A stretch of DNA of 63,720 bases from Bacteroidales bacterium (lineage in GTDB: Bacteria > Bacteroidota > Bacteroidia > Bacteroidales > WCHB1-69). The position numbers and the translations under genes were made by a program. Positions 4,375-63,720 of the stretch are shown here, piece after piece (the first letter of the stretch is position 1; the number at the start of each line of letters is the position of its first letter). The notes under the pieces are model-generated. The model did not search any database, was not told the DNA's origin, and saw only the letters and a list, made by a program, of their open reading frames with translations. The stretch lies in assembly GCA_017964755.1 (NCBI GenBank), contig JAGCRI010000130.1:1-63720 (forward strand). Direction: 5' to 3'.

Positions 4375-4395
4375 CTACTCTTTATTTTATGTAAT

Positions 4396-4424: not shown

Positions 4425-4434
4425 GTGTTATACA

Positions 4435-5448
4435 CTAAAATTCTTCTATTTCATCGTTTTCAGTTAAATCTTTAGCACAAACCCATCCTCTATTCTTTGT
4501 ATAAAATTTATGCTCGTCTGTACACTTGACGGTTTTTATTCCTTCTTTTGTTTCTACTCTTAATATCAAAAATTTTTGCATTGTGGTATTTTCAAACATT
4601 CGTTTAATCGGTTTCCATTCGCGCTCTCCTGTCTGAATATTATAGCTTAATACGCTATCAATACAAATTTTCCCAGTTACAATATCGCCTATTTTCACTT
4701 CGCCTTTGTTTGTTACAACCAGTGTATCATAATCAAAGCATTTATGCACTTCATCAGCAACAATCATCTGAATCTTTTTTGCTTTGAACAACTCAACCAT
4801 TTTTGTTTGAATAGCCGTATCTCGAAGCGTTTCAATATTCGTGATTATAAAATAATGATTTAGTAAATCTAAATTATATAAATCCTCGAGCTTGTCTTTA
4901 TTTGAGCCAACTCTTGTTTTGCCGTTCCGCAATTTTCGTTGTCCAAGAATCCAAGCAGATTCATTCGAATGGGTATTTACTTCATTAACCCAGTTCCATT
5001 TCAACGAATTAACTCCGCAGATAATTAGACAATGTGTATATCCATTCTGCTGTTTCTTGGCAACGGCTATATCAACACTTTCTTTTGTTTTACCTAAACC
5101 CATTTCATCCGCAAGCAGAAACTTATCATATTTCATTCCATAATTAAAACATTCAAGTTGATGTTTATAAGGCTTCGTTTTGAAGGCAAAATTAGTAATT
5201 ATAGGCGTTTTGTCTTTTTCTAATATACTTTTATTATCAACGATTTCAAAACGAAATTCGGGCAGTTTTTGCTGTAATTCCGCGAGCTTATAAATAGGTA
5301 GCTCCCACTCTCGAGTCGAGGGCTCATAATATCTCTGCGGAAATTCTTTAATTGTCTGAATTATATGATAATCATATTGAAATGAAACGAAGATTGAACA
5401 TTCGCCATTGCACTTTTGCGATGGTCTTGTTTCAACTTTTATTGTCAT
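4435..5448 (-). CDS. SNF2-family helicase, N-terminal fragment: N-extein (4741..5448) followed by a 101-aa N-intein (4438..4740)
   Basis: Motif I is LADEMGLGKT and motif II is IVADEVHK. At Cys codon 4738-4740 the sequence switches to CFDYDTLVVTNKG..(block A)..KCTDEHKFYT (block B, TxxH) and then a stop. The N-intein length is similar to DnaE-type N-inteins. Confidence 0.85.
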   Translation of the reverse strand: MTIKVETRPSQKCNGECSIFVSFQYDYHIIQTIKEFPQRYYEPSTREWELPIYKLAELQQKLPEFRFEIVDNKSILEKDKTPIITNFAFKTKPYKHQLECFNYGMKYDKFLLADEMGLGKTKESVDIAVAKKQQNGYTHCLIICGVNSLKWNWVNEVNTHSNESAWILGQRKLRNGKTRVGSNKDKLEDLYNLDLLNHYFIITNIETLRDTAIQTKMVELFKAKKIQMIVADEVHKCFDYDTLVVTNKGEVKIGDIVTGKICIDSVLSYNIQTGEREWKPIKRMFENTTMQKFLILRVETKEGIKTVKCTDEHKFYTKNRGWVCAKDLTENDEIEEF

Positions 5449-40101: not shown

Positions 40102-41022
40102 TCAAAAAAGTTTTTCAAGCACAATCGGCACAGCAAATTGCTCGTCTCGATAGCCTAATTTAATTCCTCTTTCCCATTCTCTAATATGGCGCATTGCTTC
40201 CACTAATTCCGTATCAGTATATACATTTATATATTCCTTTTTGATTTTGTTTATCAACCACGGCTGCAATCCAGTCGCTTTTGCTATATCGTTTCCTTCG
40301 TATGACTGCACTTGAAGCGTCTGTTTAATATTATTGTATAATACAGATAGAATAACCAGAGTACTTTCTCCAACGGCTTTGCAATCTTCATACAACTCAA
40401 AAGATAGATTCATATAGCCCTTCATCACAGCATCTACAAAGTCAAAAATAGCGTCTTTTGGTGGTCTATATATGACTCCGGTCTTTACTGCTTCGTCAAA
40501 CGATCCTCCGAGCCTTTTCAGCTTATCAATCTCCAAGAGGATTCTGCCATAATTGCTTTCGCAAAGTTCAATCAATGTGCTACATTCTTTTTCGGATAAA
40601 TCAATTTCACGTTGAATATATTTAATAAGTACCGGCTCCGCCAGCGGCTCAAACTCAACAAAACGATCCTTGAATGTCTTATAAAACTTTGTTCTTTTAT
40701 CCGGATTTGTCAACAATAAAATCAACACATTATCGCACAAAATTCCAGCTTTTAAAGCGTTTTGTACCTTATCTAATGTAATTATATCTTTGTCATCTCG
40801 AATTACATATACCACCGAATTTTGCACAAAAGAACGAGCCTTCAAAGTCTGATAAATATCAGCAAATGCGTTAATGCGCTTTATATTACATTTCTTTGCT
40901 TTTGCAATCTGTTTAATATAAATATCTTGAACAGCCCATTCATCGCCTGTAAACACATAAAAATCGAGCAATTCGCCGCTTTTAATCTGCTTCTTTACTT
41001 CTGCAACCGTCACGTCATCCAC
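40102..41022 (-). CDS. holA: DNA polymerase III delta (HolA)-like clamp-loader subunit
   Basis: 306 aa. The N-terminus ..IKSGELLDFYVFTGDEWAVQDIYIKQI fits the HolA pattern. The gene follows the delta'-like and gamma/tau-like genes. Confidence 0.55.
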   Translation of the reverse strand: MDDVTVAEVKKQIKSGELLDFYVFTGDEWAVQDIYIKQIAKAKKCNIKRINAFADIYQTLKARSFVQNSVVYVIRDDKDIITLDKVQNALKAGILCDNVLILLLTNPDKRTKFYKTFKDRFVEFEPLAEPVLIKYIQREIDLSEKECSTLIELCESNYGRILLEIDKLKRLGGSFDEAVKTGVIYRPPKDAIFDFVDAVMKGYMNLSFELYEDCKAVGESTLVILSVLYNNIKQTLQVQSYEGNDIAKATGLQPWLINKIKKEYINVYTDTELVEAMRHIREWERGIKLGYRDEQFAVPIVLEKLF

Positions 41023-41837
41023 GCCCTTCTAATATTCAAAATCCAATTATCAACGAGCATTTGCTTATTCAATGACGCATTTTTTAAATCAGAAAAAGCC
41101 TTGCTTGTTACCTTAACCCATTCAACATATCTTTTATCTTTTTCCTGTTTATATCGTTTTGCACAAATAACCATGAAGCACTTGAAAAACAAACCTAAAT
41201 CAATTTTATCTTCGTCAGAATCTTTAATTTTCAGTTTTTCCGCGATTTTGAAAGAATTAGCTCCACTCACCTCTGCAATGTTGTTTACAACCAGCTCGAC
41301 AAAATCATAAAATTCTAAAATCTTATATTTTTCTGCTAATAAATCGACCTCATCGGGAGTTTCGCAAACATTCAAAACAATTTCATTCTCATCGTCTGTA
41401 AATCTATATTTACCATCAATGTACTGCTGCAGTTCTTGCGAGGAATAGTGATCCATCTGATAGATAGCTGCTCGGGATCTCAGCGTTTTTAACAGATTGT
41501 TTTTATCTGCTACACCAATAATGATATAAGCGTTATTCTGCGGTTCTTCAGTCACTTTCAACATTGCATTTTTCGCTTGCAAAGAAACATTATCAAAATT
41601 TAAAAGCGCATATACAGTTGGATTTCTTTGAATATAGGCGTCTTTTATGATTTCTCGAACTTCATCAACCTTTGGAGAATCTACAGTAATACAAGTGCAT
41701 TTCAATTTATCTGCAATATAATTAACAAGCTCTTTTTTATCCATTTCCCCCGCTCCGCTGATAACAGAAAATCGTGGAAAGTTCTTATTATCAAGCTGCC
41801 GTTCGATTATTCTTTTTAATTCTCGCTGACCAATCAA
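41010..41837 (-). CDS. holB: Clamp-loader delta'-like AAA+ subunit with a degenerate P-loop
   Basis: 275 aa with RFSVISGAGEMDKKEL replacing the Walker A motif and TLRSRA (SRC-like). The gene is adjacent to the dnaX-like gene. Confidence 0.5.
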   Translation of the reverse strand: MIGQRELKRIIERQLDNKNFPRFSVISGAGEMDKKELVNYIADKLKCTCITVDSPKVDEVREIIKDAYIQRNPTVYALLNFDNVSLQAKNAMLKVTEEPQNNAYIIIGVADKNNLLKTLRSRAAIYQMDHYSSQELQQYIDGKYRFTDDENEIVLNVCETPDEVDLLAEKYKILEFYDFVELVVNNIAEVSGANSFKIAEKLKIKDSDEDKIDLGLFFKCFMVICAKRYKQEKDKRYVEWVKVTSKAFSDLKNASLNKQMLVDNWILNIRRAWMT

Positions 41838-42025
41838 TCTTCATACCTCCCGCGATAGTTATCAACTGTCGAATATGCTTCCCCAATTTCAGGAAATTCA
41901 AAATCACCGCACTGATAATCTTCACGACAAACCCTATCTTTCTTTTTACAGTATACCCCTGTCGGGATCACAGTATAAACCAATTTTTCGCAGTGCTTAC
42001 AATAAATACACAATTTATTCTCCAT
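41834..42025 (-). CDS. Small Cys-rich (zinc-ribbon) protein
   Basis: CIYCKHC ... YCKKKDRVCREDYQCGDFEF. Confidence 0.4.
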   Translation of the reverse strand: MENKLCIYCKHCEKLVYTVIPTGVYCKKKDRVCREDYQCGDFEFPEIGEAYSTVDNYRGRYED

Positions 42026-43049
42026 AACTAATAATCATTGCCTCCATAAGATATTTTGGATTAGAATCATATTTGATTTCTGTTTTGATATTTAGAAGTA
42101 AATCAAGAACTTTCTTTGCTGCTGCAAGCTCTTCCGGATCATTATCAAACAGTTCAACAAACCAGTCTAAAAAATCCTCAATTTCAACCGTCTGCGGAAC
42201 TAACAAATAATCAAAAGTTTTTGTTAAATAATATTTCAAAATATCTGAAACAAACCAGCAAAAATCATCAACAAACTGCTTCAAATCAACTCCATCTGAA
42301 TATACTTTTTCAATCAGACGCACCGCATCATCAGTATCATTATAGTACAGATTTTCAAATAAATCAATATATGTTTCATAACCGACTGTTCCAAGAGCCT
42401 TTACTACATTATCAAGCGTCAAATCTGGTGAATAAGAAAGACACTTATCTAACAGTGTAATTGCATCACGCATACCGCCGTTTGCTTGCTTTGCTATGAA
42501 TTCAAGTGATTCTGCGTCGAAAGTGCTATCTATATATTCCTGCCTAACAATATATTCCAATCGCTGCTCAATTTCCCAATTCTGCATTCGCCTAAAATCA
42601 AATCGCTGACAGCGTGAAAGAATTGTTTTCGGAATCTTCTCTGGATTCGTTGTGCATCCGATGAAAACTGTTTTTGCTGGCGGTTCTTCAATCAGCTTCA
42701 AAAGAGCCGCCCAAGCACCGCCTGACAGCATATGCAACTCGTCAAGAATAAACACTTTATACTCGCCCGCCATGCTCTGCATCTGTGCTTGCTTTGTCAG
42801 TTCTCTAATATCATCTACACTGTTGTGAGAAGCTGCATCGAGTTCAATCGGACTTCCAATTCCTTTATTCAGCTCATTTGCAAAGATTCTTGCACAGGTC
42901 GTTTTACCGCATCCAGCAGAACCAATAAACAGGTATGCTTGCTTTATTTCATTGTCTCGTAACTGGTTCTGCAAGATTCTTACTGTAGCAGACTGCCCGA
43001 CCACATCTTCAAATTTTTTTGGCCTGTATTTTACCGCTAACGAAATCAT
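42015..43049 (-). CDS. dnaX: DNA polymerase III gamma/tau-like clamp-loader ATPase
   Basis: YRPKKFEDVVGQ, Walker A GSAGCGKTT, Walker B ILDELHML and the SRC motif TILSRCQRF. Confidence 0.8.
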   Translation of the reverse strand: MISLAVKYRPKKFEDVVGQSATVRILQNQLRDNEIKQAYLFIGSAGCGKTTCARIFANELNKGIGSPIELDAASHNSVDDIRELTKQAQMQSMAGEYKVFILDELHMLSGGAWAALLKLIEEPPAKTVFIGCTTNPEKIPKTILSRCQRFDFRRMQNWEIEQRLEYIVRQEYIDSTFDAESLEFIAKQANGGMRDAITLLDKCLSYSPDLTLDNVVKALGTVGYETYIDLFENLYYNDTDDAVRLIEKVYSDGVDLKQFVDDFCWFVSDILKYYLTKTFDYLLVPQTVEIEDFLDWFVELFDNDPEELAAAKKVLDLLLNIKTEIKYDSNPKYLMEAMIISYGE

Positions 43050-45757: not shown

Positions 45758-45791
45758 ATCAAAAAAGTTTTGAGCCGAACTTAATCGGCTC
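45758..45791 (-). terminator. Terminator-like hairpin at the 3' end of the GIY-YIG gene
   Basis: GAGCCGA-UUAAGU-UCGGCUC, then AAAAC and UUUUUUGAUAUUUUU. The stop codon lies in the loop. Confidence 0.5.
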
Positions 45792-46584
45792 CATTCATTG
45801 CTTTATCCACCTGTTCTTCTGCTAATTTCTTTTTTAATTCAAGTGTTTTTCTCCTTGCTTCTACGCGCTTTCTAACGTGTTCAGGAGATTGCTTTCCAAG
45901 CGGCTTTCGCGGACCGCGCATTTTTTGCAGCGATTCTTCTGTATGATGCTTTCCATAAAAATGATTTAATTCACCTTTATTTATATCACTTAAATGCTTC
46001 TTAGCTTCCTCACTAAGATGCTTCCCGTACATGGGATTATCTTTTCCAAAAAACCCCTTACCATACATTGGATTATCCTTTCCACAATGTTTACCTTTTC
46101 CAGCTTCTGATATTTTTCTTTTTGTCTCTTCCGAATGGTGTTTCCCTAAATTTATTTCTCTCAATCTTTGCTTCTGATCTTCCGAAATCGGTCGCCCTTT
46201 AAATGCGGCACTTAATTTTTTCCTTGTTTCTTCCGAAACAACTCTTCCTTTAGATGCCTGCGCAAGTTTTCTTTTTGTTTCTTCAGTATGATGCATACCA
46301 AGCGCGCTGCAATCACCACCATCAGATATATTATATCCAAATTTTGGATTTTGTGTATTATAGATTTTAATTAAAAGCTGCTCAAGATCACACGCAGCTT
46401 CTTTTGACAAATCAGTAGCCAAAATAATATGTTCTATATTTTCCCAACCATATTTTTTAACTGCGCGCCCGAATAATTGTGTTTGATATCCGCGCCCGCT
46501 TGCCCATCTTTCCTCCACAGCCATTGATGTTAAACCAATATACTTTTTACCACTCGGTGTAATGTGCATATAAACTGTATACAT
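45781..46584 (-). CDS. GIY-YIG homing endonuclease with NUMOD3-type repeats
   Basis: MYTVYMHITPSGKKYIGLT..RW..GYNISDGG (GIY-YIG core) followed by 5+ HHTEETKRKL-like repeats. Confidence 0.8.
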   Translation of the reverse strand: MYTVYMHITPSGKKYIGLTSMAVEERWASGRGYQTQLFGRAVKKYGWENIEHIILATDLSKEAACDLEQLLIKIYNTQNPKFGYNISDGGDCSALGMHHTEETKRKLAQASKGRVVSEETRKKLSAAFKGRPISEDQKQRLREINLGKHHSEETKRKISEAGKGKHCGKDNPMYGKGFFGKDNPMYGKHLSEEAKKHLSDINKGELNHFYGKHHTEESLQKMRGPRKPLGKQSPEHVRKRVEARRKTLELKKKLAEEQVDKAMNGAD

Positions 46585-46596
46585 AATTCTCCCCAA

Positions 46597-51193: not shown

Positions 51194-52252
51194 TTATTTA
51201 TCCAGCAAACATAATACCTGCGTAATTCTTTCGTTTTTAATCTTAATGCTGTTTTCTTTTCCGTACCAGATTTCTAATACATCAGTGTCATTTGCTTTAA
51301 TCTGCGAAAGCAACATTTCTGAATCAATTAAGCACTTGAACTTTTCATCGCCCTGTTCAAGTTCAACAGTCTCCGTTGCGCTGCTTTCTTTGTTGGCGAT
51401 AGTTAAATATTCCTCGTCAAAAGTTAATTCAACTGCATTATTGTCATACAACCCAACAAACAGCGAAACTCTTTCAATGGCTGAAATCAGTTTATTTTTC
51501 TGCACTTTGCAGTGATAATCAAACTCACTATCAACGAGGCTGTTAATGGCATTATAGGCGTAATCTTCGATACCGTTTGCCTTTGTTGTATAGACCGAGC
51601 AATTATCGGTCTCAAAAACAATTTCATTGTCGCTTTCTGCATAGATAATGTCGCTGTCCATAATATCAAGCAAACTCATTGTTTCCGCTGAAATAAGTGC
51701 AGGATCATCCATGAACTTATCATCCAACGCTGCAATCTTATAAGTATCCGTTGCCATAATTTTATCTCCTGTATAATAATTTGTATAACAAGGAGATTCG
51801 AGAGTAACTGCCAAAGCGGGTTTACAAATTCGCAAAATATTTTTCACTGTTGAAAGTTTAATTTCTCCACGCTTTGCTTCACTTGAAATCTGCTTGAACG
51901 GAAACTGAACTGGCTTTTCATTCTCATCAACTGGAATCTCAATTGAATAAGAACCGTTATTTGTAACGACTTTCAACTCTTTTTCGAGCAAATCCAACTT
52001 CACAAACTCACAATTTAATCTCGAAATGAGCTTGGCAAACTTTTCAACACCAATCACGATTTCAAAGTCCTGCTCATCCTCAATTTCTTCGCGAATGTAC
52101 AGATAATTGTTCATGTCAGTCGTAGTTAATGTCAGCAGACCGTCTTCATTTCTGATTTCAATCATACTTGTCAATGGAAGCAATCTATTAAGACTTGCCC
52201 CTTTAACTGCTTTTGCAACCATTTCCTGCAATAATGCTGTTCTGATTTTCAT
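51194..52252 (-). CDS. dnaN: DnaN-like (beta) sliding clamp
   Basis: 352 aa. ..LLPLTSMIEIRNEDGLLTLTTTDMNNYL.. and ..IMATDTYKIA.. parallel the beta-clamp segments P.L..L.....G.L.LT.TD.E and ..TDGHRLA. Confidence 0.65.
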   Translation of the reverse strand: MKIRTALLQEMVAKAVKGASLNRLLPLTSMIEIRNEDGLLTLTTTDMNNYLYIREEIEDEQDFEIVIGVEKFAKLISRLNCEFVKLDLLEKELKVVTNNGSYSIEIPVDENEKPVQFPFKQISSEAKRGEIKLSTVKNILRICKPALAVTLESPCYTNYYTGDKIMATDTYKIAALDDKFMDDPALISAETMSLLDIMDSDIIYAESDNEIVFETDNCSVYTTKANGIEDYAYNAINSLVDSEFDYHCKVQKNKLISAIERVSLFVGLYDNNAVELTFDEEYLTIANKESSATETVELEQGDEKFKCLIDSEMLLSQIKANDTDVLEIWYGKENSIKIKNERITQVLCLLDK

Positions 52253-52480: not shown

Positions 52481-52762
52481 CTATTCATAAATAATTTTAT
52501 AACCATTAGCAACTGCATAGGCGTGTTCTAATCTTGCGCCAATGCTTGTTTCCCATCCTTTGAGCATATAAATTGTATCACACAAAGAAAGCAAACAAAG
52601 AGATACTTTCATATAATCATTGTATTCACAACATTTTGGCAATCTCTCATTTATAGCCGCGGGGTTTATAACAGAAAACCTTTTATTCAATGATCTCTCT
52701 GCATCTTCAAACCGCTTTATATAATCTGTTGTTCCGGTTATTTTGCCACTAATGTAAATCAT
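52481..52762 (-). CDS. DUF4406 (nucleoside 2-deoxyribosyltransferase-like) protein
   Basis: MIYISGKITG..F..AE..L......VINPA....CDTIYMLKGWETSIGARLEHAYA fits the DUF4406 pattern. Confidence 0.55.
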   Translation of the reverse strand: MIYISGKITGTTDYIKRFEDAERSLNKRFSVINPAAINERLPKCCEYNDYMKVSLCLLSLCDTIYMLKGWETSIGARLEHAYAVANGYKIIYE

Positions 52763-53646
52763 TAAAACAGACTCGCTTTCTTTGGCATGTTTTCAATCCC
52801 TTTGCAATTTGCAACAGCTTGATTATAATAACTTTCTTTCAACTCAATTCCTACGCCGCGCCTACCCATTTTCAATGCTTGATAGACTTCACTACCAATA
52901 CCGAGAAACGGCGTGAAAACAATATCAGTTTCATTTGTCCACAATTCAATACACCTTTCAACAACATCCAACTGCAATGGGCAAATGTGCTTTTCATCCG
53001 CTTGCTCTCTGGCACTTTCTTTTTGCAGCGTATTTGATTGATTTATATCCATCCAAACAGGACTTGCATAGTTTTGCCATTTACTAACAGGAAAGCTCTC
53101 GTTTGTGTGTTCAATTCTTTCAGGATTTTCACCCGGCTTTCTCATTGTAATAACATAATCTGCAATTCCCTGTCTGCACATTGCACTATCTTTTTTGATC
53201 TGTTTATGAAGCAATCCAAGAGCCTTTGTACGCTGCATAGCAATAACAGGATCTTTCCATATTGTTACACGCGAATGATAAATAAAACCACCGTCAATAA
53301 ACATCTGAATCAACTGACCAGGAAAATCTTGCAAACCAATAAAGCCGTCTCGCTGTTTTTGTGTCGGCAAATCCATGCGATGAAAAGAAACAAGTCTTCC
53401 GGGAATCATAATACGATAAAGCTCTTTAATAATAAATTCAAACTGTTCATAAAATTCAGTTGTGCTCCTACAATTCCCCAAATCTCTAACAGAATTTGAA
53501 TAAACATAAAGCTGCGCGAATGGCGGAGAAAAAATAGAATAATGAATACTGCTATCAGGAATTGCTTTCATTACTTCGCAACTATCTCCATTATACAAAA
53601 TAAATCCATTTCCTTCATATTGATTTTTACATTTTACATCTAAACT
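52762..53646 (-). CDS. DNA methyltransferase, beta-class motif order (SPPF before FxGxG), N6-A or N4-C type
   Basis: GTG 53646 lies 7 nt after AAAGGAG. Motif IV is FSPPFAQLY and motif I is FTPFLGIGSEV. The C-terminus is ..PKKASLF. Confidence 0.7.
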   Translation of the reverse strand, partial: SLDVKCKNQYEGNGFILYNGDSCEVMKAIPDSSIHYSIFSPPFAQLYVYSNSVRDLGNCRSTTEFYEQFEFIIKELYRIMIPGRLVSFHRMDLPTQKQRDGFIGLQDFPGQLIQMFIDGGFIYHSRVTIWKDPVIAMQRTKALGLLHKQIKKDSAMCRQGIADYVITMRKPGENPERIEHTNESFPVSKWQNYASPVWMDINQSNTLQKESAREQADEKHICPLQLDVVERCIELWTNETDIVFTPFLGIGSEVYQALKMGRRGVGIELKESYYNQAVANCKGIENMPKKASLF

Positions 53647-53651
53647 CACAA

Positions 53652-55031
53652 TTATTCTCCTTTCTCTGAATGCAACCAAACTGGAAGTTTAACTAATGTG
53701 TCTGCAAAATAATCCTCTGTAATTCGCATTGTGCTGTGTATTTCATTTTTGAGAATTTCACTTGTTCTATCAATCATTTCCTGTGACATCTTATCGTGCT
53801 GCGCCTGCTTCTTTTTGATATTATTCAAAACGGACAACTCACGTTGCGAAATAATAACATACACACTCACTTCGTTTTCTTGACCAAACCTATAACACCG
53901 CCTGACAGCTTGATAAAACTTTTCATAGCTATCGGAAATTCCGCAGAAAATCATGTTATGGCATTTCTGAAAATTCATACCGAACCCACAAATAGACGGT
54001 TTACTAACAAGAAACTTTATATCACCGTTTGCAAATCCAATCATGCTATCTTCTTTGTGTTGATCTGAATCACTGCCGCGAACTTCTACAATTCCACATT
54101 GATTTTTTACAAGCTCAGATTCATCATTATAATCAACCCAAATCAAACAACTGTCCATATTTTTAATAAGCTGTTTTACAACATCAACGCGATCTTGCAT
54201 AGAGTCTTTTCTTGCCTGTCTGCGTTCTGACAAATCCTTTGCAACAGATGGAATTAACTCACCCGTCCGCGCTTCGCTTGCAACAATAATATGCTCGATG
54301 TTAAGTTTAGGCAAATTATATCTATCATCGAAATAACCAATGTCTGCTGGATTTTTAACAACCATAGCCCATGTTGCAAGCCATTCCCAAAATTTGCATT
54401 CAGCGTGTCGTTTCATTCTCCATTGACTTTCTTTTGCATCATTTATAAAAAATGTTGCAAGCATTTCTGTTCGAGACATAACATTCAAAAACTCACTGTG
54501 ATTTCCAAATTCAGTATAATCATTTGGAGAAGGCGTTGCAGTACACGCCAACTTATACTTTGTAAACCGAAAAATCTCAATAATATCATTTGACATTTTT
54601 CCAAGAGTTGCTTTCAAAATACTGCTTTCATCAAGCACAACACAAACAAACTCATTCGGATTAAAGTGCTGCAACATTTCATAATTTGTAATATTAATTC
54701 CAGCTTTTACATCTTTTTGAGTGCGACAAATATTGACCTCGATTCCGAATTTCTCGCCCTCTTGCTTTGTCTGCTTTGAAACCGCCAACGGTGCAAGAAT
54801 CAATGCTTTTCCATTTTCTCGTTTGCAAACTTGATTCGCAAATTCAAGCTGGCAAATCGTTTTACCAAGTCCTGTATCGAGAAACAAAGCACATCTTCCT
54901 TTTTTCAAAGCCCACTTTACAATAGCGCGTTGAAAAGGAAAAAGATTTTCATTTAACTCGGATTCTTCAATATCAAAACCAGTATTTTCATATTTATACT
55001 CTTTCGATTTCAAAAACTCTATATATTCCAT
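53652..55031 (-). CDS. SF2 DEAD/DEAH-SNF2-like helicase located between the two methyltransferases
   Basis: Motif I LDTGLGKT, motif II VLDESS, and later TATPSPND. Confidence 0.7.
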   Translation of the reverse strand: MEYIEFLKSKEYKYENTGFDIEESELNENLFPFQRAIVKWALKKGRCALFLDTGLGKTICQLEFANQVCKRENGKALILAPLAVSKQTKQEGEKFGIEVNICRTQKDVKAGINITNYEMLQHFNPNEFVCVVLDESSILKATLGKMSNDIIEIFRFTKYKLACTATPSPNDYTEFGNHSEFLNVMSRTEMLATFFINDAKESQWRMKRHAECKFWEWLATWAMVVKNPADIGYFDDRYNLPKLNIEHIIVASEARTGELIPSVAKDLSERRQARKDSMQDRVDVVKQLIKNMDSCLIWVDYNDESELVKNQCGIVEVRGSDSDQHKEDSMIGFANGDIKFLVSKPSICGFGMNFQKCHNMIFCGISDSYEKFYQAVRRCYRFGQENEVSVYVIISQRELSVLNNIKKKQAQHDKMSQEMIDRTSEILKNEIHSTMRITEDYFADTLVKLPVWLHSEKGE

Positions 55032-55044
55032 AAGATTTAATTCC

Positions 55045-55959
55045 TTAAAACAAAGAAGTCTTTTTTATAATTTTTTGTTCTTTTGACACACAATAAAACT
55101 TTTCTTTGCCTTCGCCATTTCCGGACAAATAATCCTTTATTCTACTGCAATATAAATCATTGCTTTTGGAAATTTCAAAAAGCCTATCGGAAAGTGGATA
55201 TTTTCGATCTCCAACATTCAGAATAAAAACACCACCATCATCCAAACGGTCAACAGTTTTCAAAATAAGCGGTGTATAAAAACCATCAACCCAAGAGTCA
55301 AAAGTTTTATATCTATTCAAACTGTTCGTTTCTTCATCGGAATAATGCTCAGTGTTATAATATGGCGGCGATGTCAGCGCAATGTCAAATTTTCTTTCAC
55401 TTGTAAATTCTTCATACGGAATTTTATGAATGCAAAAATCAAACGTCGGTTGCAACTGCTTTAGCCACGCACCAAGATTCAAAAGTCCTTCATACGTCTT
55501 TGTATTCGGTTCACACGCTTCATAATAAGTATTCGGAATACTTGCCGCTCCAATCATTCTACCGCCCCAGCCAGCGCACGGATCAAGGATTTTCAAAAAT
55601 GGCTTATTTCCATATTGTATATATATATCACGAGCAACTGCGGGAGGAAACTCATTTACATATTGAACATTTTGAAATCCACGTTGGATTGTATTATAAA
55701 ATGAATTTGCAACCTTATGCTCCATATTATATAAATATAAACGCGCCAACCCATCAATTTTATTATCATCTTGCAGTGATTCATAAATTGACAAATCATC
55801 CTTTTCTGTGTCTGTTGAAAGCCTGTGCGGATTAAATAACAAAGAAATAGTTTTACCGGCATTTACTCCGTGACATAATTTATAAAATTCTTCAATAGCT
55901 TGCGTTTTGGTTATAAACTCTGCTGCAAATTCTTCAAGACTTAGTTGCCGCAAGTTCAT
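55045..55959 (-). CDS. DNA methyltransferase, gamma-like motif order (DPCAGWGG before SPPY)
   Basis: ATG 55959 follows GAGAGGG. Motif I is ILDPCAGWGGRMIGA and motif IV is LTSPPYYN. The C-terminus is ..IIKKTSLF. Confidence 0.65.
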   Translation of the reverse strand: MNLRQLSLEEFAAEFITKTQAIEEFYKLCHGVNAGKTISLLFNPHRLSTDTEKDDLSIYESLQDDNKIDGLARLYLYNMEHKVANSFYNTIQRGFQNVQYVNEFPPAVARDIYIQYGNKPFLKILDPCAGWGGRMIGAASIPNTYYEACEPNTKTYEGLLNLGAWLKQLQPTFDFCIHKIPYEEFTSERKFDIALTSPPYYNTEHYSDEETNSLNRYKTFDSWVDGFYTPLILKTVDRLDDGGVFILNVGDRKYPLSDRLFEISKSNDLYCSRIKDYLSGNGEGKEKFYCVSKEQKIIKKTSLF

Positions 55960-58294
55960 TTTCAAACCCTCTCGCAGTGTTTCTCTCTGCAACTTTCTTT
56001 GCACTCCCTTCTAATGGTTCTCCGTACCAAGCGTGTGTCAATTCCACGTCACACTTGATTGGCATTTCAAGGATTTTCTCAGCAGCTTTCGCCATAACCT
56101 TTTCCAAAAGTTCTGAACACTCTTTCATGTTTTCTTCTGGACATTCGGCTATAACTTCATCATGTACCTGCACAAGAAGCCTGAAACCAAGCTCTTTTAG
56201 CCGCTGATTTTTTCCTAAATCGACCATCGCCAGCTTTGTCAAATCTGCTGCGCTACCTTGAATTCTCGCGTTGACACACTGCCTTGTAGCATCTGCTATT
56301 TTTGCTCCGTTATCAACGATCCAGATTCCTTCTTTATTTGCTTCCTCAAAGACTTTTCGCTTTTCCCCGAATCTGCAATATCTCAATTTCCGCAGATATT
56401 TGTTGATTGTAGATTGAGGTATTTCGGCATTTTCGTCCTCCTCAAAATCTAAAACATCTGCACTATGAGGAACGCCGTCTTTCCACCTAAATTCAAATTC
56501 GTCTAACTGCATTTCAGGCAAGCGTCTTTTTCTTCCGCAAACGGTTGTAACATAACCCTCAACCCATGCCATTCCCATGCTTTCCCGCTCAAACTCTTCA
56601 ATAGCAGGAAATGCTTTAAACACGCTGTTCTTGATTGCTTGTGCCTTATCTGTGGAACATCTTAACTGCTCTGCAATACTTGCAACTCCTCGCCCATAGA
56701 GCACGCCGAGCAATATACTCTTTGCTTGCGTTCTTCTTTCCTTGCCAGCTTTATTCGTTGTTCCATCTGGATTAAATTCCAAGCAATCTTCATAAGCAAC
56801 ATTAAAAGCCTTTGAAGCAATCTCGGAATACAAATCTTTTCCCGCCATAAATGTATCATACATTTGCGAATCGCCGTTCTTTTTACACAAGGCCGCTAAA
56901 CATTTTGGCTCTTGCTGACTAAAGTCGCTTGACATAAGCACATATCCCGGACTTGCAATAAACATCTTTCTAATATCTTTGTTATGACTTGGAATGTTTT
57001 GTAGATTCGGGTCGCTGCTGGAAAATCTACCTGTATCGGCTCCATATTGATTAAACGAGCAGTGAATTCTTCCGTCTTTCGGATTAGCACATTTAGGCAG
57101 CTTATCAATATAAGTTGATACCAGCTTTGCCATTTCCCTATAATCAAGAATTGCTTGTGCTACTGGACTTTCCATCTTCTGTAAAATAGCTTCGCCTGTT
57201 CCTCTTGGACTTCTTGGATCCGGCGGTTCAATCTTCAAAATGTCGTATAACAGGATTGCAACTTGCGTTGGACTGCCCATATTGATTGGGTCATCTAACT
57301 TATGATTCGGATGAGTATCTTTATACTGCTGTATCACACTGTTATAACGTGAAATTTCACTGTAAAACGCTTTTGTCTTTTCTTCAAGTAAACTATTATA
57401 CTTTTCCGAAAGTTTGTTAGAATAGTCAAAATCAAGTGCAATACCGTTATCTTCCATATCCGCCACAACTGGCAAACACGGCATTTCAATATTATAAAAT
57501 ACCCAAGAAACACCTTGCAAACTGCCTACGCAATCTGGACTGTTTGGGTCAAGAAACTGCCGTTGATAATCACAAAGCTCACAAGTGATTTCAGGGTCGT
57601 GCGCCGCATAAAGATAGCCAACATTGATTGGAATCATTGTAAATGGGATTCCTTTGAATAACTCGTCAAACTTAAAAGCATCACCCTGTCCGTCTAAACA
57701 GTATTTATTATGTAGTGCTTTCAAACCTTTTTGCGTCTCATTTTCATTTAGCAACCTGCTTGCTAAATATCCATCCCATGAACAATAAATATCCGTCAAG
57801 CCAAGCTGATTTCGTAGAAAGCGGATATCAAACTTCGCGTTGAACATATCTATCGTCGGTTTTGCGGCAAGTAGTCGTTCAAACGCTTCTCGACAATCTT
57901 CCATTGGCAACTGCCCATCAACTTTTTCATTCGTGATGTAGCTAATGTGATTCAATGGAATATACGCCGCTTTCTGACCTCTTGTATAAATACAAATACC
58001 AGCAAGCACATTCTGCATTGGGTCAAGCCCATCTGTTTCTGTATCGATTGCAATGTATTTATTTTCAACACAAGAATCAATATAGCTGTTTAACGTCTGT
58101 AAATCTTGAATAATAATGTATCTATCTTTGTACTGTCCAAGACTTCTTTCAACCATTTCTCGGATAGCTGAAATCTTATCCACAAGACTTTTGTTTCCGC
58201 GCACCGTTACAGCCGTTTTTTTCGGCTTTTCCCGCGCTTTCTGCGTTATCAATAAATCGTTATTAGTTCTTGTAGGAACTTCAAATAATGGCAT
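55934..58294 (-). CDS. polA: Family A DNA polymerase (PolA-type) with a 3'-5' exonuclease domain
   Basis: Exo I IAIDTETDGL, motif A SSDFSQQEPK, motif B RRTQAKSILLGVLYGRG and motif C LVQVHDEVI. Confidence 0.85.
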   Translation of the reverse strand: MPLFEVPTRTNNDLLITQKAREKPKKTAVTVRGNKSLVDKISAIREMVERSLGQYKDRYIIIQDLQTLNSYIDSCVENKYIAIDTETDGLDPMQNVLAGICIYTRGQKAAYIPLNHISYITNEKVDGQLPMEDCREAFERLLAAKPTIDMFNAKFDIRFLRNQLGLTDIYCSWDGYLASRLLNENETQKGLKALHNKYCLDGQGDAFKFDELFKGIPFTMIPINVGYLYAAHDPEITCELCDYQRQFLDPNSPDCVGSLQGVSWVFYNIEMPCLPVVADMEDNGIALDFDYSNKLSEKYNSLLEEKTKAFYSEISRYNSVIQQYKDTHPNHKLDDPINMGSPTQVAILLYDILKIEPPDPRSPRGTGEAILQKMESPVAQAILDYREMAKLVSTYIDKLPKCANPKDGRIHCSFNQYGADTGRFSSSDPNLQNIPSHNKDIRKMFIASPGYVLMSSDFSQQEPKCLAALCKKNGDSQMYDTFMAGKDLYSEIASKAFNVAYEDCLEFNPDGTTNKAGKERRTQAKSILLGVLYGRGVASIAEQLRCSTDKAQAIKNSVFKAFPAIEEFERESMGMAWVEGYVTTVCGRKRRLPEMQLDEFEFRWKDGVPHSADVLDFEEDENAEIPQSTINKYLRKLRYCRFGEKRKVFEEANKEGIWIVDNGAKIADATRQCVNARIQGSAADLTKLAMVDLGKNQRLKELGFRLLVQVHDEVIAECPEENMKECSELLEKVMAKAAEKILEMPIKCDVELTHAWYGEPLEGSAKKVAERNTARGFENELAATKS

Positions 58295-58405: not shown

Positions 58406-59050
58406 TTAAAATGCACTTCTACCAGTTGCCGGAGTTCTTCTTTGCGGTTCTGCGGTTCTGCGTTTAACCTGTGCCTGTTCTTCACTTCCGAAAGAACCTG
58501 TATTTACATAATTTTCAAGCTCTTCAAAAGACTTATCAAGAACCATAGTACCAAGAACATCAGGGACTTCGGGCAAATCCTCAAGCTGAGTATCGTCAGG
58601 ACCGCCTACGGCATAAATCTGGTATGTCGTGTTGGTATCTCCCTTTGCGCCGTTTCTTTCAATTTCAAAAACCTGCGCACAAAGAGGAGTTCTTCCTGCG
58701 TATCTTCCACAAAGACTTGAAATCTGTGAAAAGAATCGTTTGCCGCGCTCCCAAAGCTGAACCTTATCCTCATCAATGTTATAAAGAGGAATAAACATCT
58801 TTGCGGTCGTGAACTTGTGATCTTTGCACAGCGGGCAGGTATCTACCGGATCGTTATAACTTCTCGGACAATTCACATACCGTGTTCTTCCGTCGATTTC
58901 AACTGCGTGAACTGAATAGCCAACAACATCATCAATTCCATTGTAAAGAAATCTAACCTGTGCAGTGTCCTTATCGTTTTTTAAACTGAAATAACCCGCT
59001 CCACCCCCGTTTCCGTACTTCTCTGCATCGTTTGCGTTGAATCTTGCCAT
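58406..59050 (-). CDS. gp32-like zinc-containing single-stranded DNA-binding protein
   Basis: TAQVRFLYNG..H.VEIDGRTRYVNCP..DTCPLC..IPLYNIDEDKVQLWERGKRFF parallels T4 gp32 AVIRFLP..H...KWYIE.C..DSCPVC.. Confidence 0.6.
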   Translation of the reverse strand: MARFNANDAEKYGNGGGAGYFSLKNDKDTAQVRFLYNGIDDVVGYSVHAVEIDGRTRYVNCPRSYNDPVDTCPLCKDHKFTTAKMFIPLYNIDEDKVQLWERGKRFFSQISSLCGRYAGRTPLCAQVFEIERNGAKGDTNTTYQIYAVGGPDDTQLEDLPEVPDVLGTMVLDKSFEELENYVNTGSFGSEEQAQVKRRTAEPQRRTPATGRSAF

Positions 59051-59396: not shown

Positions 59397-59666
59397 CTAA
59401 AATAATGCCGTCTTTCTCAACTCATCTTCAGAAACTCCATCAACAACAAATACCCAACCATTAAAATTTGAACCAAAGTGTTCAAAACATAAATCAATTC
59501 TAATTACCTGAATTTTTTTCAAATCTAACTTATCTCGAAGTGTTTTTTGATTAAAATAATGACCAACATCCCAGCAAGAATGTTTTGTACGAACGTTTCT
59601 TAAATATACGCCATCGCTTTCCTTATTTATATTACACAAACGCAATGCACAACCTAATGTTATCAT
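59397..59666 (-). CDS. Hypothetical protein
   Basis: 89-aa ORF with RBS GGAAGGTG. Confidence 0.45.
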   Translation of the reverse strand: MITLGCALRLCNINKESDGVYLRNVRTKHSCWDVGHYFNQKTLRDKLDLKKIQVIRIDLCFEHFGSNFNGWVFVVDGVSEDELRKTALF

Positions 59667-60033: not shown

Positions 60034-60897
60034 TTATATCTTTGTAATTTTAATAATTGGAGTTTTATCTCGTGTATATCCACGTTTCACCCATAAAGAC
60101 ATAGCTGATTTTGTAATACCAAAAAACTCAGCGCCTTCATCTAAACCATTAAAAAACTTATCACCGACATAAAACTTTATGCGCCCAGCGTAATTTGGCT
60201 TTCCCAACAAAGCTTCTCGTATTTTCTGTTTTGTTTCCTCGTCACGATGCTTACCTGTCCAGCACCCAATTTGCCCCTTGTGGCTTTCTGATAATTTCTT
60301 TCTTGTTTCCTCTGATGCCTTTCTTCCTAAATTCATTTCACGTAGTTTCTTTCTTGTTTCTTCCGTAATAACTCGATTTTTAGCTGCCTCACTAATTCTT
60401 TTTCTTCCTTCATCCGATAAACCTGGATATGGTTTACCTTTGTTAGCCTTTGAAATTTTTTCCCTGTGCTCTTTAGATAAGGGCTTACCTCGCAGCCCAG
60501 ATATACGTTTTTCGATCGTTTCGGGAGATTGTTTTTTACCAATATGCGCCAACCTATTTTTTTCAATAGCTTCTTGTGAATGATGTTTACCATACATAGG
60601 ATGGTTTTCTCCGAAAAATCTGGTTGTACTTCCTCCGTTAGATATATTATATCCAACACTTCTATCAATAGAATTATAATAAGAAATCCAAAAAATTTCA
60701 CGCCTATCTAAGTCGTCATCATTATCACACCATTCAAGAACCTCACATACAAAATTATCAATACCATATTTAGAAATAGCCTGCTTCAAAACATAACCAC
60801 TTCCGAAATACTTTTTATCAAATTCAGAACACCGGTGCTGACCAATATAAATTTTTCCGTTGATTAAATTTGTTGTTTTATAAATATACCCACACAT
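60034..60897 (-). CDS. GIY-YIG homing endonuclease with NUMOD3-type repeats (second copy)
   Basis: ATG 60897 follows AGGTGG. MCGYIYKTTNLINGKIYIGQH..GYNISNGG, then repeats of the HHSQEAIEKN / ETRKKLRE type. Confidence 0.8.
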   Translation of the reverse strand: MCGYIYKTTNLINGKIYIGQHRCSEFDKKYFGSGYVLKQAISKYGIDNFVCEVLEWCDNDDDLDRREIFWISYYNSIDRSVGYNISNGGSTTRFFGENHPMYGKHHSQEAIEKNRLAHIGKKQSPETIEKRISGLRGKPLSKEHREKISKANKGKPYPGLSDEGRKRISEAAKNRVITEETRKKLREMNLGRKASEETRKKLSESHKGQIGCWTGKHRDEETKQKIREALLGKPNYAGRIKFYVGDKFFNGLDEGAEFFGITKSAMSLWVKRGYTRDKTPIIKITKI

Positions 60898-60933
60898 ATA
60901 AAATACCACCTAATTGATTTATTTACTATGTAT

Positions 60934-60966: not shown

Positions 60967-61959
60967 CTAAAACACCTCATAAAGATTTTTTATTTCTTCG
61001 TCGGAACACTCTCCAATGTCTTTTCTTCCAAACGGCAAAATAACTTCTGTTATTATTTTGTAACCTTGTAATTTCTTTCTTAGTTTTACCCTCGCATCTT
61101 GACCAGATTTATCCATATCGGTTGCGAGTATAATCTTCCTACACGGCATATCTATAAGCTGTCTAATCTGTATTTCATTGCCTAAACCATTAAGAGCGCA
61201 AGCGGGCTTTTTATTTTTCCACAAAAGACAGCAGTCAATCATACTCTCACAAACAAACACCTCTGATGGAAACACTGGTAATTGATATAATTGATATATT
61301 CCGTATAATTGTTTTTTAACATCTCTTGGATAATAAAAATTTTTACCATTTATACTTCTTCGAGCCACGAATAAACAATTTCCTTTTTTATCTAAATTGG
61401 GAAATGTAATACAATTTTGCTCAATATCTACGCCAATGTCGAACAGCCCAATAATTTCATCTGTTAGCTTGCGCTGATACATATACGGGTGAATAAACCT
61501 ATATTTATCCAGTTCTTCCTCCGTTACAAATTCAGAATGATGATTATTGTCCAGTCTATGATCTCCTTTATTAGTTTTATCGGAAACATCATAACGCGAA
61601 AAATCAAGTTGAACATCTTTTCTTTCCTCCACTGAAATTGTCATGAAATTCTTTAAGAGCCAGTCCCAACCGAATTTGCCAAGAACATCATCTACATATC
61701 CAAAACAATGCGAAATCACTTCATTTAATTCGTGTACCTCGCCGCAAGCAAAACAGTGAAATTTTCCATCACTTTTCCGAATACCTGCCGACGGTCTGCG
61801 CTCCATACCGTTTGAATGATATGGGCAAGTAACTTGATAATGTGTACTTGTTTCCTTTTGTTTTGCAAGCAGCGGAATATTATTGATGCGGAGTTGAGCA
61901 GTTAATTCCGCTAAAATTTCGCCTAATTCCGCGTTGAATTCAAGCCCGTTAATACGCAT
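60967..61959 (-). CDS. dnaG: DNA primase (CHC2 zinc finger plus TOPRIM)
   Basis: CPYHSNGMERRPSAGI..FHCFACGEVH zinc finger, TOPRIM-like VCESMIDC ... ATDMDKSGQ, and a TAATG overlap with the dnaB stop. Confidence 0.75.
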   Translation of the reverse strand: MRINGLEFNAELGEILAELTAQLRINNIPLLAKQKETSTHYQVTCPYHSNGMERRPSAGIRKSDGKFHCFACGEVHELNEVISHCFGYVDDVLGKFGWDWLLKNFMTISVEERKDVQLDFSRYDVSDKTNKGDHRLDNNHHSEFVTEEELDKYRFIHPYMYQRKLTDEIIGLFDIGVDIEQNCITFPNLDKKGNCLFVARRSINGKNFYYPRDVKKQLYGIYQLYQLPVFPSEVFVCESMIDCCLLWKNKKPACALNGLGNEIQIRQLIDMPCRKIILATDMDKSGQDARVKLRKKLQGYKIITEVILPFGRKDIGECSDEEIKNLYEVF

Positions 61960-63248
61960 TAAAACACATCCTCTTTCTTTTTCTTTTCTTTATGCTCTGT
62001 TGTTCTTTCAACTCTCTGTCGCTGTCCATCTGACGGAATACAAGTGAATTCGCCTGTGTTAATAGACCACGCATAAAGCAATCTGCCACCAACTCGTCCG
62101 AAGCGGTTTTTCTTCACCGCAATTTCAAGGACGTTATCCTGCTTTTGCCGAATTGAAAGAACCTTGCTTGCATTAGCCGCCATACCGTCTGAATCTCTCG
62201 CGCTTTCAAGCTCCGGTGCTCCGCTATCTTCATTCTGAGCAACGCCGCTTCTGTTTGCTTGACCAACAACTACAATCGGAATTGAAAGCTCCAAAGATAA
62301 CTCCATCAAATCTTCGCTAATATTAGTCAATGCCATTGTTAAGTTATCTCCACGCTGTGATCGTTCATCTGTTAGATATTTAACACCATCCACGGCAAGC
62401 AAATCCAGTTTATACTCCTTCACGAAATTCCTCAACTTTGAAACAGTGATTTTTCGCGCAAAATCCGCAGGCGTAGCGACCATAAATTTGTTTTCCCGCT
62501 GCTTCAATTGCTGAACATAATCTTTGTAACTATCGTCTTTAATATCGTCCTTGCCCCACATCAATCCAGCGTTTGAAAAATTCTTGTAAAGCGTGTCAAA
62601 ACGATAGCCAATACTGGTTGCAGACATTTCCGGCGATATATATCCAACATTATATCCAAGCTGCCAAACATGAGTAGCAATCTTTTCAAGAACCCACGAT
62701 TTACCTTGATTGATTCTTGCAAAGATAAAAACAAATTCTTCACCGCGCTGCAACCCGTAAATTTCATCGTCTAACTCTGGAAAACCTGTTGTAAAATACC
62801 ATTCCTTTTCACTTGTTTTTCGCTCAATATATTCATCATACCGCTTTTCTGCTTGTGATACAATATCTGTTGCACCAATCTGATAGCTGACTGGAATTGC
62901 TCTTGCTGCCTGTATCATATATTGAACAGCTTCATTTGCATCTGTTTTAAAAAGCTCCGCTGACTTTTGCAATACCGGAACACCAATGGTGTAGGCATAT
63001 TCTTCACGAATCGTGTCAACTAAATAGCGGTCACTTTCCTGCACTTCCACAGGCTCAAACTCGGGAAACTTTGAAAAGAACGTTGCTTTATCGGGAACAA
63101 TTCCATAATGATCAAAATGCTCGTTAATAAAATCAATTTCTTTTTCGTAACCAACGAAATAATCCTTTGTCAAGCCGTTTTCGGAAAGAATAGAATGATC
63201 TTTTGTTTCAAGCAGTTTTGAAATAATCTGCACACTAACTATTGCCAT
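61959..63248 (-). CDS. dnaB: DnaB-like replicative helicase
   Basis: GFPELDDEIYGLQRGE, Walker A ARINQGKS, and a RecA-like C-terminal domain. ATG 63248 is preferred over the TTG at 63278 used by the ORF track. Confidence 0.75.
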   Translation of the reverse strand: MAIVSVQIISKLLETKDHSILSENGLTKDYFVGYEKEIDFINEHFDHYGIVPDKATFFSKFPEFEPVEVQESDRYLVDTIREEYAYTIGVPVLQKSAELFKTDANEAVQYMIQAARAIPVSYQIGATDIVSQAEKRYDEYIERKTSEKEWYFTTGFPELDDEIYGLQRGEEFVFIFARINQGKSWVLEKIATHVWQLGYNVGYISPEMSATSIGYRFDTLYKNFSNAGLMWGKDDIKDDSYKDYVQQLKQRENKFMVATPADFARKITVSKLRNFVKEYKLDLLAVDGVKYLTDERSQRGDNLTMALTNISEDLMELSLELSIPIVVVGQANRSGVAQNEDSGAPELESARDSDGMAANASKVLSIRQKQDNVLEIAVKKNRFGRVGGRLLYAWSINTGEFTCIPSDGQRQRVERTTEHKEKKKKEDVF

Positions 63249-63720
63249 TTGATCTTCTGTCCTTTCCCTTAAACTCAATTACATCTGACCAATTCCACAG
63301 GCGGCTTGCTATCTTTGCTCCGACTGCTTCTGTCACTTCTGCAAGCGTTGTTGAATTGCTTGTAAATATATTTGCCTTATCATTTAACAGACGATTTTCT
63401 AAGAACATCAGCAAATTCTGATAATCATATTGACTAACATTAGACGATGCTATTTCATCCCACACCACCAAATCAACATTCAAAATCTGTCGCTTATATT
63501 CTTCTGAAAGCGGATTTGAAAAATTCTTTAACTGCAATAATAGTGTCGGGACATGAATAAACAGCCCTCTCACTTGTAAACCATTGCCATCCCATACTTC
63601 CTCAAAGAAGTGCATAAGCAATTTCAGTGCCCAACTTGTCTTTCCATTACCAGTGCTTTTGCTGCAAATGAACAAATTACCGCCAAGCTCGACAAATTCT
63701 TTAATATCCTTCTTAACGCT
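63235..63720 (-). CDS. DnaC/DnaI-like helicase loader, C-terminal segment. The gene continues at 1..387, and 63580-63720 duplicates 1-141
   Basis: Walker A CSKSTGNGKTS and Walker B DLVVWDE, with an AAA+ IstB/DnaC-like layout. Confidence 0.65.
   Translation of the reverse strand, partial: SVKKDIKEFVELGGNLFICSKSTGNGKTSWALKLLMHFFEEVWDGNGLQVRGLFIHVPTLLLQLKNFSNPLSEEYKRQILNVDLVVWDEIASSNVSQYDYQNLLMFLENRLLNDKANIFTSNSTTLAEVTEAVGAKIASRLWNWSDVIEFKGKDRRSNGNS
63580..63720. repeat. Terminal overlap, identical to 1-141
   Basis: Visual base-by-base comparison. Confidence 0.95.

Follow-up and report, generated by a model that had tools for sequence, protein, structure and literature searches.

Sliding clamps of the DnaN (beta) type recruit clients such as Pol II, Pol IV, Pol III alpha, Hda, MutS/L and delta through a short peptide of the form QL[SD]LF, which lies in a disordered terminus and inserts its Leu-Phe pair into subsite I of the clamp. 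The motif has been published as Q-phi-x-[LM]-[FL] with acidic flanks (2024 review). According to the same review the Leu-Phe moiety alone binds subsite I, and delta (AMSLF) is the one natural ligand known to have no glutamine; no DNA-modifying enzyme appears among the clients, and the word 'methyl' is absent from the text. Here we describe two putative clients of another kind, the DNA methyltransferase MT1 and the probable DNA methyltransferase MT2, which are encoded together with a DnaN-type clamp on contig JAGCRI010000130.1 (63,720 nucleotides, analysed as a whole and referred to below as the window). As in the known clients, a Leu-Phe pair is carried by a short peptide at a disordered terminus, and relatives of MT1 carry the full consensus. 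The two enzymes differ from the known clients in that they are, in the case of MT2 putatively, DNA-modifying enzymes, in that the glutamine and the aliphatic residue have given way to Lys or Arg, in the position of Leu-Phe at the very terminus, and in that the presumed receptor is a phage-encoded clamp approximately 15-19% identical to bacterial clamps.

The same logic is found in DNMT1, a maintenance methyltransferase that is tethered to the sliding clamp PCNA and methylates new DNA (PMC9690074). PCNA is a trimer bound through a PIP box, and DNMT1 is a C5 methyltransferase with a large N-terminal region; there is no homology to the enzymes described here, and the likeness is at most one of convergence. 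The closest precedent is a study of the plasmid methyltransferases M.EcoGIX and M.BceJIII, bacterial mobile-element enzymes which are tied to replication and co-immunoprecipitate with Pol I, and whose authors speculate that a sliding clamp acts as intermediary (Fomenkov et al. 2020, PMC7736820). These two enzymes, however, are specific for single-stranded DNA, with no clamp-binding motif reported; our plasmid search gave few matches and did not detect either of them as a relative of MT1. Phage Mu MuC, IS elements, Tn3 and TnsE provide further examples of mobile-element proteins with clamp motifs that couple their activity to replication, but these are transcription or transposition factors working on the host clamp, whereas the present proteins are modification enzymes encoded beside a phage clamp.

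A hexapeptide identical to the end of MT1, KKASLF, is found in the extreme C-terminal tail of T4-like polymerases, and was named in the initial annotation of the window as part of the clamp-binding peptide of the RB69 polymerase. The peptide itself is real: KKASLFDMFDF is the exact polymerase C-terminus in 22 T4-like phages (tblastn). It is reportedly the RB69 peptide of the co-crystal with the clamp; a phmmer search of PDB sequences with the RB69 peptide did not find it. The tail of the T4/RB69 polymerase reportedly binds the phage clamp gp45. There SLF does not stand at the end but precedes DMFDF, and gp45 is a PCNA-like trimer, in contrast to the DnaN-type clamp of the window. The RB69 peptide is therefore an analogy and not a homologue, and the resemblance is most likely coincidental.

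A search of the literature, which included recent clamp reviews and lay mostly outside subscription journals, gave no phage or bacterial DNA methyltransferase, and no DpdA, with a clamp-binding motif, in keeping with the initial annotation, to which no description of such coupling was known. The docking principle is known; the proposed client class (DNA-modifying enzymes) would be new, and the motif a derived one.

MT1 and MT2 are unlike each other in the order of their catalytic motifs. MT1 matches PF01555 with E=4e-16 and 60.1 bits, against a gathering cut-off of 26.7, and its motif IV (S40-P-P-F43) precedes motif I (F247-x-G-I-G251). With a score above the cut-off and (D/S)PP(Y/F) lying N-terminal to FxGxG, it belongs to the beta class; its AlphaFold2 (AF2) model is nearest to the beta-class amino-methyltransferases TTHA0409, CcrM, M.PvuII and M.RsrI. 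The open reading frame (ORF) spans 52762..53679 on the minus strand, and translation is likely to start at TTG 53646, giving 294 amino acids as in the homologs. In MT2 the order is reversed, with motif I (D128-P-C-x-G-W-G-G135) preceding motif IV (S199-P-P-Y202). Both DPCxGWGG and SPPY are invariant in the MT2 alignment (A2), and the match to PF01555 is weak (20.2 bits, under the cut-off). The gene had initially been taken to start at 55959. The N-termini of most MT2 homologs favour GTG 56004, from which the gene overlaps the end of polA by 71 nucleotides (55934..56004); the identical NCBI protein (P0121, 306 amino acids) starts further in.

Both proteins end in KK[A/T]SLF, an observation of the initial annotation that proved correct, as did the opposite motif order. 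The C-terminus of MT1 is ..CKGIENMPKKASLF (..MPKKASLF) and that of MT2 is ..KEQKIIKKTSLF (..IIKKTSLF). The codons of the two tails differ, being aag aaa gcg agt ctg ttt in MT1 and aaa aag act tct ttg ttt in MT2; MT1 has AGT for serine and CTG for leucine, MT2 has TCT and TTG. What the tails share is thus protein sequence and not DNA sequence. In the AF2 model of MT1 the last helix comprises residues 271-284, and the tail ENMPKKASLF is coil.

Thousands of MT1 homologs were found. Among the 120 closest (74-99% identity), 88 end in Leu-Phe and five more in Leu-Phe followed by one acidic residue; for MT2, approximately 114 of 120 homologs (57-100% identity) have a Leu-Phe end. Terminal Leu-Phe is nearly invariant in the orthologs of both enzymes, and the residues before it vary. 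Positions -3 to -8 of the MT1 tails are variable and basic, and over positions -3 to -10 the tails of both sets are hypervariable, with 32-41% Lys or Arg (41% in MT2) compared with 11% in the protein bodies, and with acidic residues nearly absent before Leu-Phe. Glutamine at position -5 occurs in only 5% of close MT1 homologs and 13% of close MT2 homologs. A constant Leu-Phe preceded by hypervariable but basic flanks indicates that the selected unit is a basic linker with a free C-terminal Leu-Phe, and not KK[A/T]SLF as had been supposed at first. Compared with the canonical motif, positions 4-5 ([LM][FL]) are matched by the Leu-Phe end of both tails, and the pair lies, as expected, in a disordered terminus, conserved between variable flanks. 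The glutamine of position 1 and the aliphatic residue of position 2 are missing, the window tails reading K-A-S-L-F and K-T-S-L-F. The likeness to QL[S/D]LF proposed in the initial annotation holds for the Leu-Phe pair and fails for these two residues.

The occurrence of the MT2 tail was compared with that of a phage dnaN gene. As single-protein queries retrieved zero loci for the clamp and only five for MT2, alignment queries were used instead, and clamps were detected with a hidden Markov model built from 37 phage DnaN sequences. The MT2 scan covered 79 viral loci with relatives 25-71% identical to the window protein. Nine loci had a basic tail with LF, LW or FF at its end. DnaN was encoded at all seven of these with enough contig to be assessed, by an adjacent gene in six of the seven. 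At approximately 62 loci the protein had no tail, stopping right after GEGETFYxITK, and no DnaN was found within 10 kb on either side. At the loci that could be assessed, the MT2-family tail was therefore present only together with a phage dnaN, the co-occurrence that the initial annotation had anticipated. Tailed and tail-less groups both include proteins 42-50% identical to the window MT2, and the split is thus not simply one of distance.

Assignment of the clamp as a DnaN-type protein, made in the initial annotation together with that of three clamp-loader subunits, was upheld for all four genes. A profile search of the PDB with the clamp gave 4tr6 (B. subtilis DnaN, E=1e-12). Its AF2 model, with a predicted local distance difference test score of 95.1, matched 4tr6 in Foldseek with a template-modelling (TM) score of 0.87, and the top 50 matches were all beta clamps. 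The protein has the three-domain beta-clamp fold, and a cognate clamp loader is encoded at 40102..43049. In both MAFFT and hhalign alignments the E. coli subsite-I segment ATDGHRL is aligned with ATDTYKI of the phage clamp, so that T172 is kept and H175, R176 and L177 are replaced by Y, K and I. The phage clamp thus retains a segment of the form ATD-x-[YH]-[KR]-[IL]. In the MAFFT alignment only, acidic residues appear, tentatively, in place of N320, Y323, V344 and M362-R365 of subsite II. The phage clamp family is strongly negative, with a net protein charge of approximately -24 and a mean charge of -3 over the last 10 residues, and most of its members (P0391-P0510; cluster 0 of the dnaN-positive loci described below) bear an acidic extension beyond the final beta strand, for example ..ALLEDDRxxE or ..ALMEDEE. 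As a lead only, we suggest that this extension could complement the basic flanks of the tails.

MT1-type enzymes are widespread beside SNF2 helicases or fused to them, and a scan of 80 viral loci found a SNF2 helicase adjoining MT1 at 76. DnaN and PolA were clearly present at only five of the 80 (L001-L005), and the MT1 tails of these five are of the type ..K..LF with a free terminus. Most of the other loci, with no dnaN detected nearby, carry at the same position VQLSLFDEGEAQ, QESLFQDEIYEV, EQIDLFEG, QLSLW or QMSIFGE, and further canonical-type tails from such loci read QLSLFDE, QMNIFDF, QESLFQDE, QMNIFDFL and, at the terminus itself, QDQLSLF. Many MT1 representatives are SNF2::methyltransferase fusions of approximately 750 amino acids in which the tail is retained; that of Flavobacterium phage FCV-1.01 ends ..ATLTLF. 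Among MT1 homologs, 34% have the pattern Q..[LIM][FW] within their final 15 residues, compared with 0.3% of 1040 neighbouring proteins and 0.4% of internal windows. MT1 representatives at 50% identity were also drawn from a search of 1.84 billion proteins; [LMI]F occurs in the last 20 residues of 66% of the full-length ones, whereas internal windows reach 12% and shuffled tails 15%, and the residues after the motif are acidic. In their Q..[LIM][FW] core and their acidic flanks, the tails of MT1 relatives match the published beta-clamp motif. Two actinobacteriophage homologs of MT1 end differently, gp68 of Mycobacterium phage Cabrinians (L214) in ..SVPTLLDALDDAS and gp72 of Arthrobacter phage Zucker (L215) in ..APSLLDALDAS. 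This P-[ST]-L-L-D variant may reflect a different clamp motif in the host.

The Leu-Phe tail is not confined to the two methyltransferases singled out in the initial annotation, but is a clade-wide mark of DNA-modifying enzymes. Unbiased clustering of 1160 ORF products from 48 loci encoding a related DnaN (dnaN-positive loci) yielded conserved families with a free C-terminal Leu-Phe, among them MT1 (7/7), MT2 (5/5), a DpdA-like family resembling queuine tRNA-ribosyltransferases (9/9) and a stand-alone ligase Nlig-Ia domain (9/11, ending ..KKRLF, e.g. L088:8712-9080). The two Nlig-Ia exceptions (L113:14245-14565 and L115:13409-13723) have Leu-Phe at the N-terminus instead, as MLFDK or MALFDKK. 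A small ParB-like protein likewise starts MSQLF or MGQLF, and 28 of 32 PolA orthologs begin M-x-L-F followed by a basic linker; the PolA of the window begins MPLF. Two kinds of C5 cytosine methyltransferase also have Leu-Phe tails, as do another PF01555 enzyme, PAPS-reductase-domain proteins, a class I SAM methyltransferase, DUF5591 and DUF6884. At these loci nearly every member of the tailed families ends in Leu-Phe, the exceptions being mostly frameshifted fragments. A PAPS-reductase-domain protein from a phage without dnaN (L024:3830-4723) has the canonical-type end ..KKEEQLKLF, and its counterparts in dnaN-positive phages end ..RGRRKLF (L100:12696-13733) and ..VGRKLF (L103:797-1696). Overall, a C-terminal Leu-Phe is found in 4.8% of proteins from dnaN-positive loci against 0.4-1.1% in comparison loci without dnaN, an odds ratio of 6.9 (4- to 11-fold depending on the comparison set) that is uncorrected for phylogeny. 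In the window, 4 of the approximately 90 minus-strand genes have products ending in Leu-Phe, compared with approximately 0.4 expected from the frequencies of the two residues.

Two cultured phages, Streptococcus phage Dp-1 (NC_015274, L217/L218) and Clostridium phage phiCTP1 (NC_014457, L219), are syntenic with the window. All three share the gene orders DnaN-Cas4-RecU...recombinase...clamp loader and DnaB-primase-SSB-PolA. DpdA of Dp-1 (gp7) ends ..IKNRQRRLF, its PolA (gp71) starts MAQKGLFG and its DnaN ends ..QEPEE; gp16 of Dp-1, annotated as a 'ligase' (Nlig-Ia), has been assigned a non-canonical start codon upstream of an in-frame MQKSLFG. In phiCTP1 PolA starts MALFNF and Nlig-Ia starts MNLF. 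The DNA of Dp-1 contains dPreQ1 at approximately 1.7% of G (Hutinet et al. 2019), indicating that, in a phage open to experiment, an enzyme with a Leu-Phe tail acts on phage DNA. A phage-host interactome paper does not mention DnaN.

The simplest reading of the Leu-Phe termini, as far as sequences can suggest one, is that they would be clamp-binding peptides. They occupy the position of the canonical motif in relatives and go together with a phage clamp; the polymerase, necessarily a user of that clamp, has them too, and they are able to move from one protein terminus to the other. Their restriction to DNA-modifying enzymes points to a coupling of modification with replication, like that of DNMT1 with PCNA. 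Probably, then, in line with the proposal of the initial annotation, the tails of MT1 and MT2 are glutamine-less clamp-binding peptides that couple DNA modification to replication through the phage clamp. The last ten or so residues of each methyltransferase would form an unstructured Lys-rich linker with Leu-Phe and a free carboxylate at its end. Leu-Phe would enter the hydrophobic subsite I, which lies between domains II and III of the phage clamp, and the basic flank may add electrostatic affinity for this very acidic protein. Clamps loaded at primer ends by the phage clamp loader would remain on the newly made duplex and carry or recruit the methyltransferases, in relatives also C5 methyltransferases, DpdA transglycosylases and PAPS-reductase-like enzymes, and nascent phage DNA would then receive its modification at the fork or shortly behind it. 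Physical binding, the choice of the phage clamp and protection from host restriction as the benefit are what we infer.

Several points weigh against clamp binding by the tails. The canonical glutamine and aliphatic residue are missing from the window tails, and peptides without these bind E. coli beta weakly. A tail of only about ten residues would hold the catalytic domain close to the face of the clamp. The mapping of subsite II and domain III on the phage clamp is unreliable, since MAFFT and hhalign (probability 65%) disagree there, and the window clamp, like its four closest relatives, is without the acidic extension and ends ..CLLDK. Absence of dnaN was judged within the 10 kb on either side only, and the statistics are uncorrected for phylogeny. 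In addition, dnaN co-occurs with PolA, DnaB, SSB and the clamp loader, and co-occurrence alone can therefore not single out the clamp.

A clamp could also be bound, but the host's beta clamp instead of or besides that of the phage, with the enzymes recruited to it or titrating it. Such binding would fit the host-type Q-x-x-L-F of MT1 relatives with no dnaN detected nearby, the ability of Leu-Phe alone to bind a bacterial subsite I, and the precedent of MuC, which uses the host clamp through such a motif. In dnaN-positive phages, however, glutamine at -5 is rare (5-13%) and the flanks have changed from acidic to basic, the MT2 tail is found only where a phage dnaN exists, and the phage polymerase, the expected user of the phage clamp, bears the same reduced motif; we consider a host target unlikely. 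The inheritance of dnaN with a whole replication module leaves room for another dnaN-linked hub, namely the clamp loader, SSB, the polymerase or the SNF2 helicase. The helicase almost always adjoins MT1, and the conserved terminal aromatics of SSB, DnaB and primase show that tail contacts are common in this replisome. Yet SNF2::methyltransferase fusions keep the tail, which argues that SNF2 is not its target, and the polymerase itself bears the motif, which makes it a client and not a hub. The motif moreover stands at a position equivalent to the canonical clamp motifs of MT1 relatives, and dnaN directly adjoins MT2 at most tailed loci, so that we give a hub other than the clamp little probability.

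C-terminal hydrophobic dipeptides can act as protease tags, and the tail could be a signal for degradation, stability or localisation that has no connection with replication, such as a protease tag or a packaging signal. This seems highly improbable in view of the N-terminal position of the motif in PolA and some Nlig-Ia proteins, its limitation to DNA-acting enzymes, and its replacement in relatives by canonical clamp motifs. Chance, composition or a constraint on the DNA, arising from overlap with the next start or a ribosome-binding site, might be suspected from the overlap of the MT1 stop codon with the ATG of the next gene and from an AT-rich genome in which Lys and Phe codons are common. 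The two tails nevertheless use different codons, Leu-Phe is kept across differing downstream contexts in hundreds of homologs, and Leu-Phe ends are enriched approximately 7-fold relative to loci without dnaN. This explanation is effectively refuted.

Docking of the tails on the phage clamp may be part of a wider arrangement, which is about as likely as not. The DnaN clamps of the widespread Dp-1-like clade would be private hubs with a rewired code, in which a free-terminus Leu-Phe with a basic flank replaces Q-L-x-L-F with an acidic flank, recruiting the polymerase, the ligase-domain protein and essentially all the DNA-modifying enzymes that these phages carry; phages without a clamp would borrow the host clamp through the canonical motif. 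The recruited modifiers may include four unrelated methyltransferase families, DpdA 7-deazaguanine transglycosylases and PAPS-reductase-like enzymes, and protection of the genome by epigenetic marks or hypermodification may thus be hard-wired to its replication. If clamp docking is correct, it would give DNMT1-PCNA coupling its first counterpart in bacteria or phages, would place a whole functional class, DNA-modifying enzymes, among the few known beta-clamp clients, and would explain how phages close the window of exposure of unmodified new DNA to host restriction enzymes. The reduced, free-terminus form of the motif suggests that clamp clients have been missed by searches that require glutamine. 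As a simple sequence marker the tail could help to pick out candidate DNA-modifying enzymes from phage genes without annotation, and engineered enzymes might be brought to replication forks by means of it. Dp-1, with a DpdA ending ..RRLF, its own DnaN and dPreQ1 in its DNA, would serve as a tractable test system.

The coordinates of the features discussed are collected in the table.

Table. Methyltransferases, clamp and replication features of the window (positions in the 63,720-nucleotide stretch)
Feature	Position	Strand	Basis or remark
MT1, beta-class N6A/N4C DNA methyltransferase, 294 amino acids (start likely)	52762..53646	-	PF01555, motifs, AF2 fold
MT1 C-terminal tail ENMPKKASLF, putative clamp-docking peptide	52765..52794; LF codons 52765..52770	-	
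MT2, amino-methyltransferase-like, motif I then motif IV	55045..56004	-	start ambiguous
MT2 C-terminal tail KEQKIIKKTSLF	55048..55083	-	directly after last conserved element EKFYC[IV]S
DnaN-type sliding clamp, proposed docking hub	51194..52252	-	PF00712 + PF02768
Family A DNA polymerase with 3'-5' exonuclease domain	55934..58294	-	PF00476 + PF01612
Polymerase N-terminus MPLFEVP	58274..58294 (MPLF = 58283..58294)	-	
SNF2-family helicase between MT1 and MT2	53652..55031	-	Pfam SNF2-rel_dom + Helicase_C
Clamp-loader gamma/tau-like AAA+ subunit	42015..43049	-	PF13177, PF00004, PF22608, PF12169
Clamp-loader delta'-like subunit	41010..41837	-	PF13177
Clamp-loader delta-like subunit	40102..41022	-	PF21694 + phrog_20214

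The window carries an exact 141-bp direct repeat at its ends (1..141 and 63580..63720), indicating a circularly assembled, complete phage genome of approximately 63.6 kb. At NCBI the record bears the label 'MAG: Bacteroidales bacterium'. A megablast search of 50,697 phage records with the 8.3-kb methyltransferase region, in which all genes lie on the minus strand, gave zero matches. Downstream of MT1 is a DUF4406 (nucleoside 2-deoxyribosyltransferase-like) gene without a Leu-Phe tail (52481..52762, minus strand), whose start codon takes in the final base of the MT1 stop codon (TAATG overlap).

The delta-like clamp-loader subunit ends ..VLEKLF and was considered as a third docking tail. It was rejected, as its orthologs end ILASLL, ILVNIF or EIFNLN; this Leu-Phe is the hydrophobic end of a folded helix without a basic linker and was not counted as a tail. 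An 89-amino-acid ORF between the SSB gene and a 101-amino-acid ORF (59397..59666, minus strand) ends ..DELRKTALF, and no orthologs of it were present among the fetched loci (a singleton).

A second class of conserved terminal motif, [DE]-x-[FY] with a free carboxylate, is found in SSB (58406..59050), DnaB (61959..63278) and primase (60967..61959). Terminal Phe or Tyr is present in 31/31 SSB orthologs (..RRTP..RRDRF or RDVY) and 15/18 primase orthologs (..NLxEVF), and terminal Phe in 12/12 DnaB orthologs (..K[ED]DVF). These ends recall T7 gp4 and gp2.5, whose C-terminal Phe tails bind T7 DNA polymerase.

A second helicase gene of SNF2/HARP type (2543..5448, minus strand) is apparently interrupted by an intein, its pieces forming separate ORFs. 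The N-terminal part of SNF2 and the start of a HINT/intein are encoded at 4435..5448, a DUF559 endonuclease-like ORF lies within the interrupted gene at 3616..4374, and the C-terminal end of the intein, the C-terminal part of SNF2 and Helicase_C are encoded at 2543..3640. Two homing-endonuclease-like genes with GIY-YIG and NUMOD3 domains (45781..46596 and 60034..60909, minus strand) lie in the replication module, one of them between the primase gene and the SSB and PolA genes.

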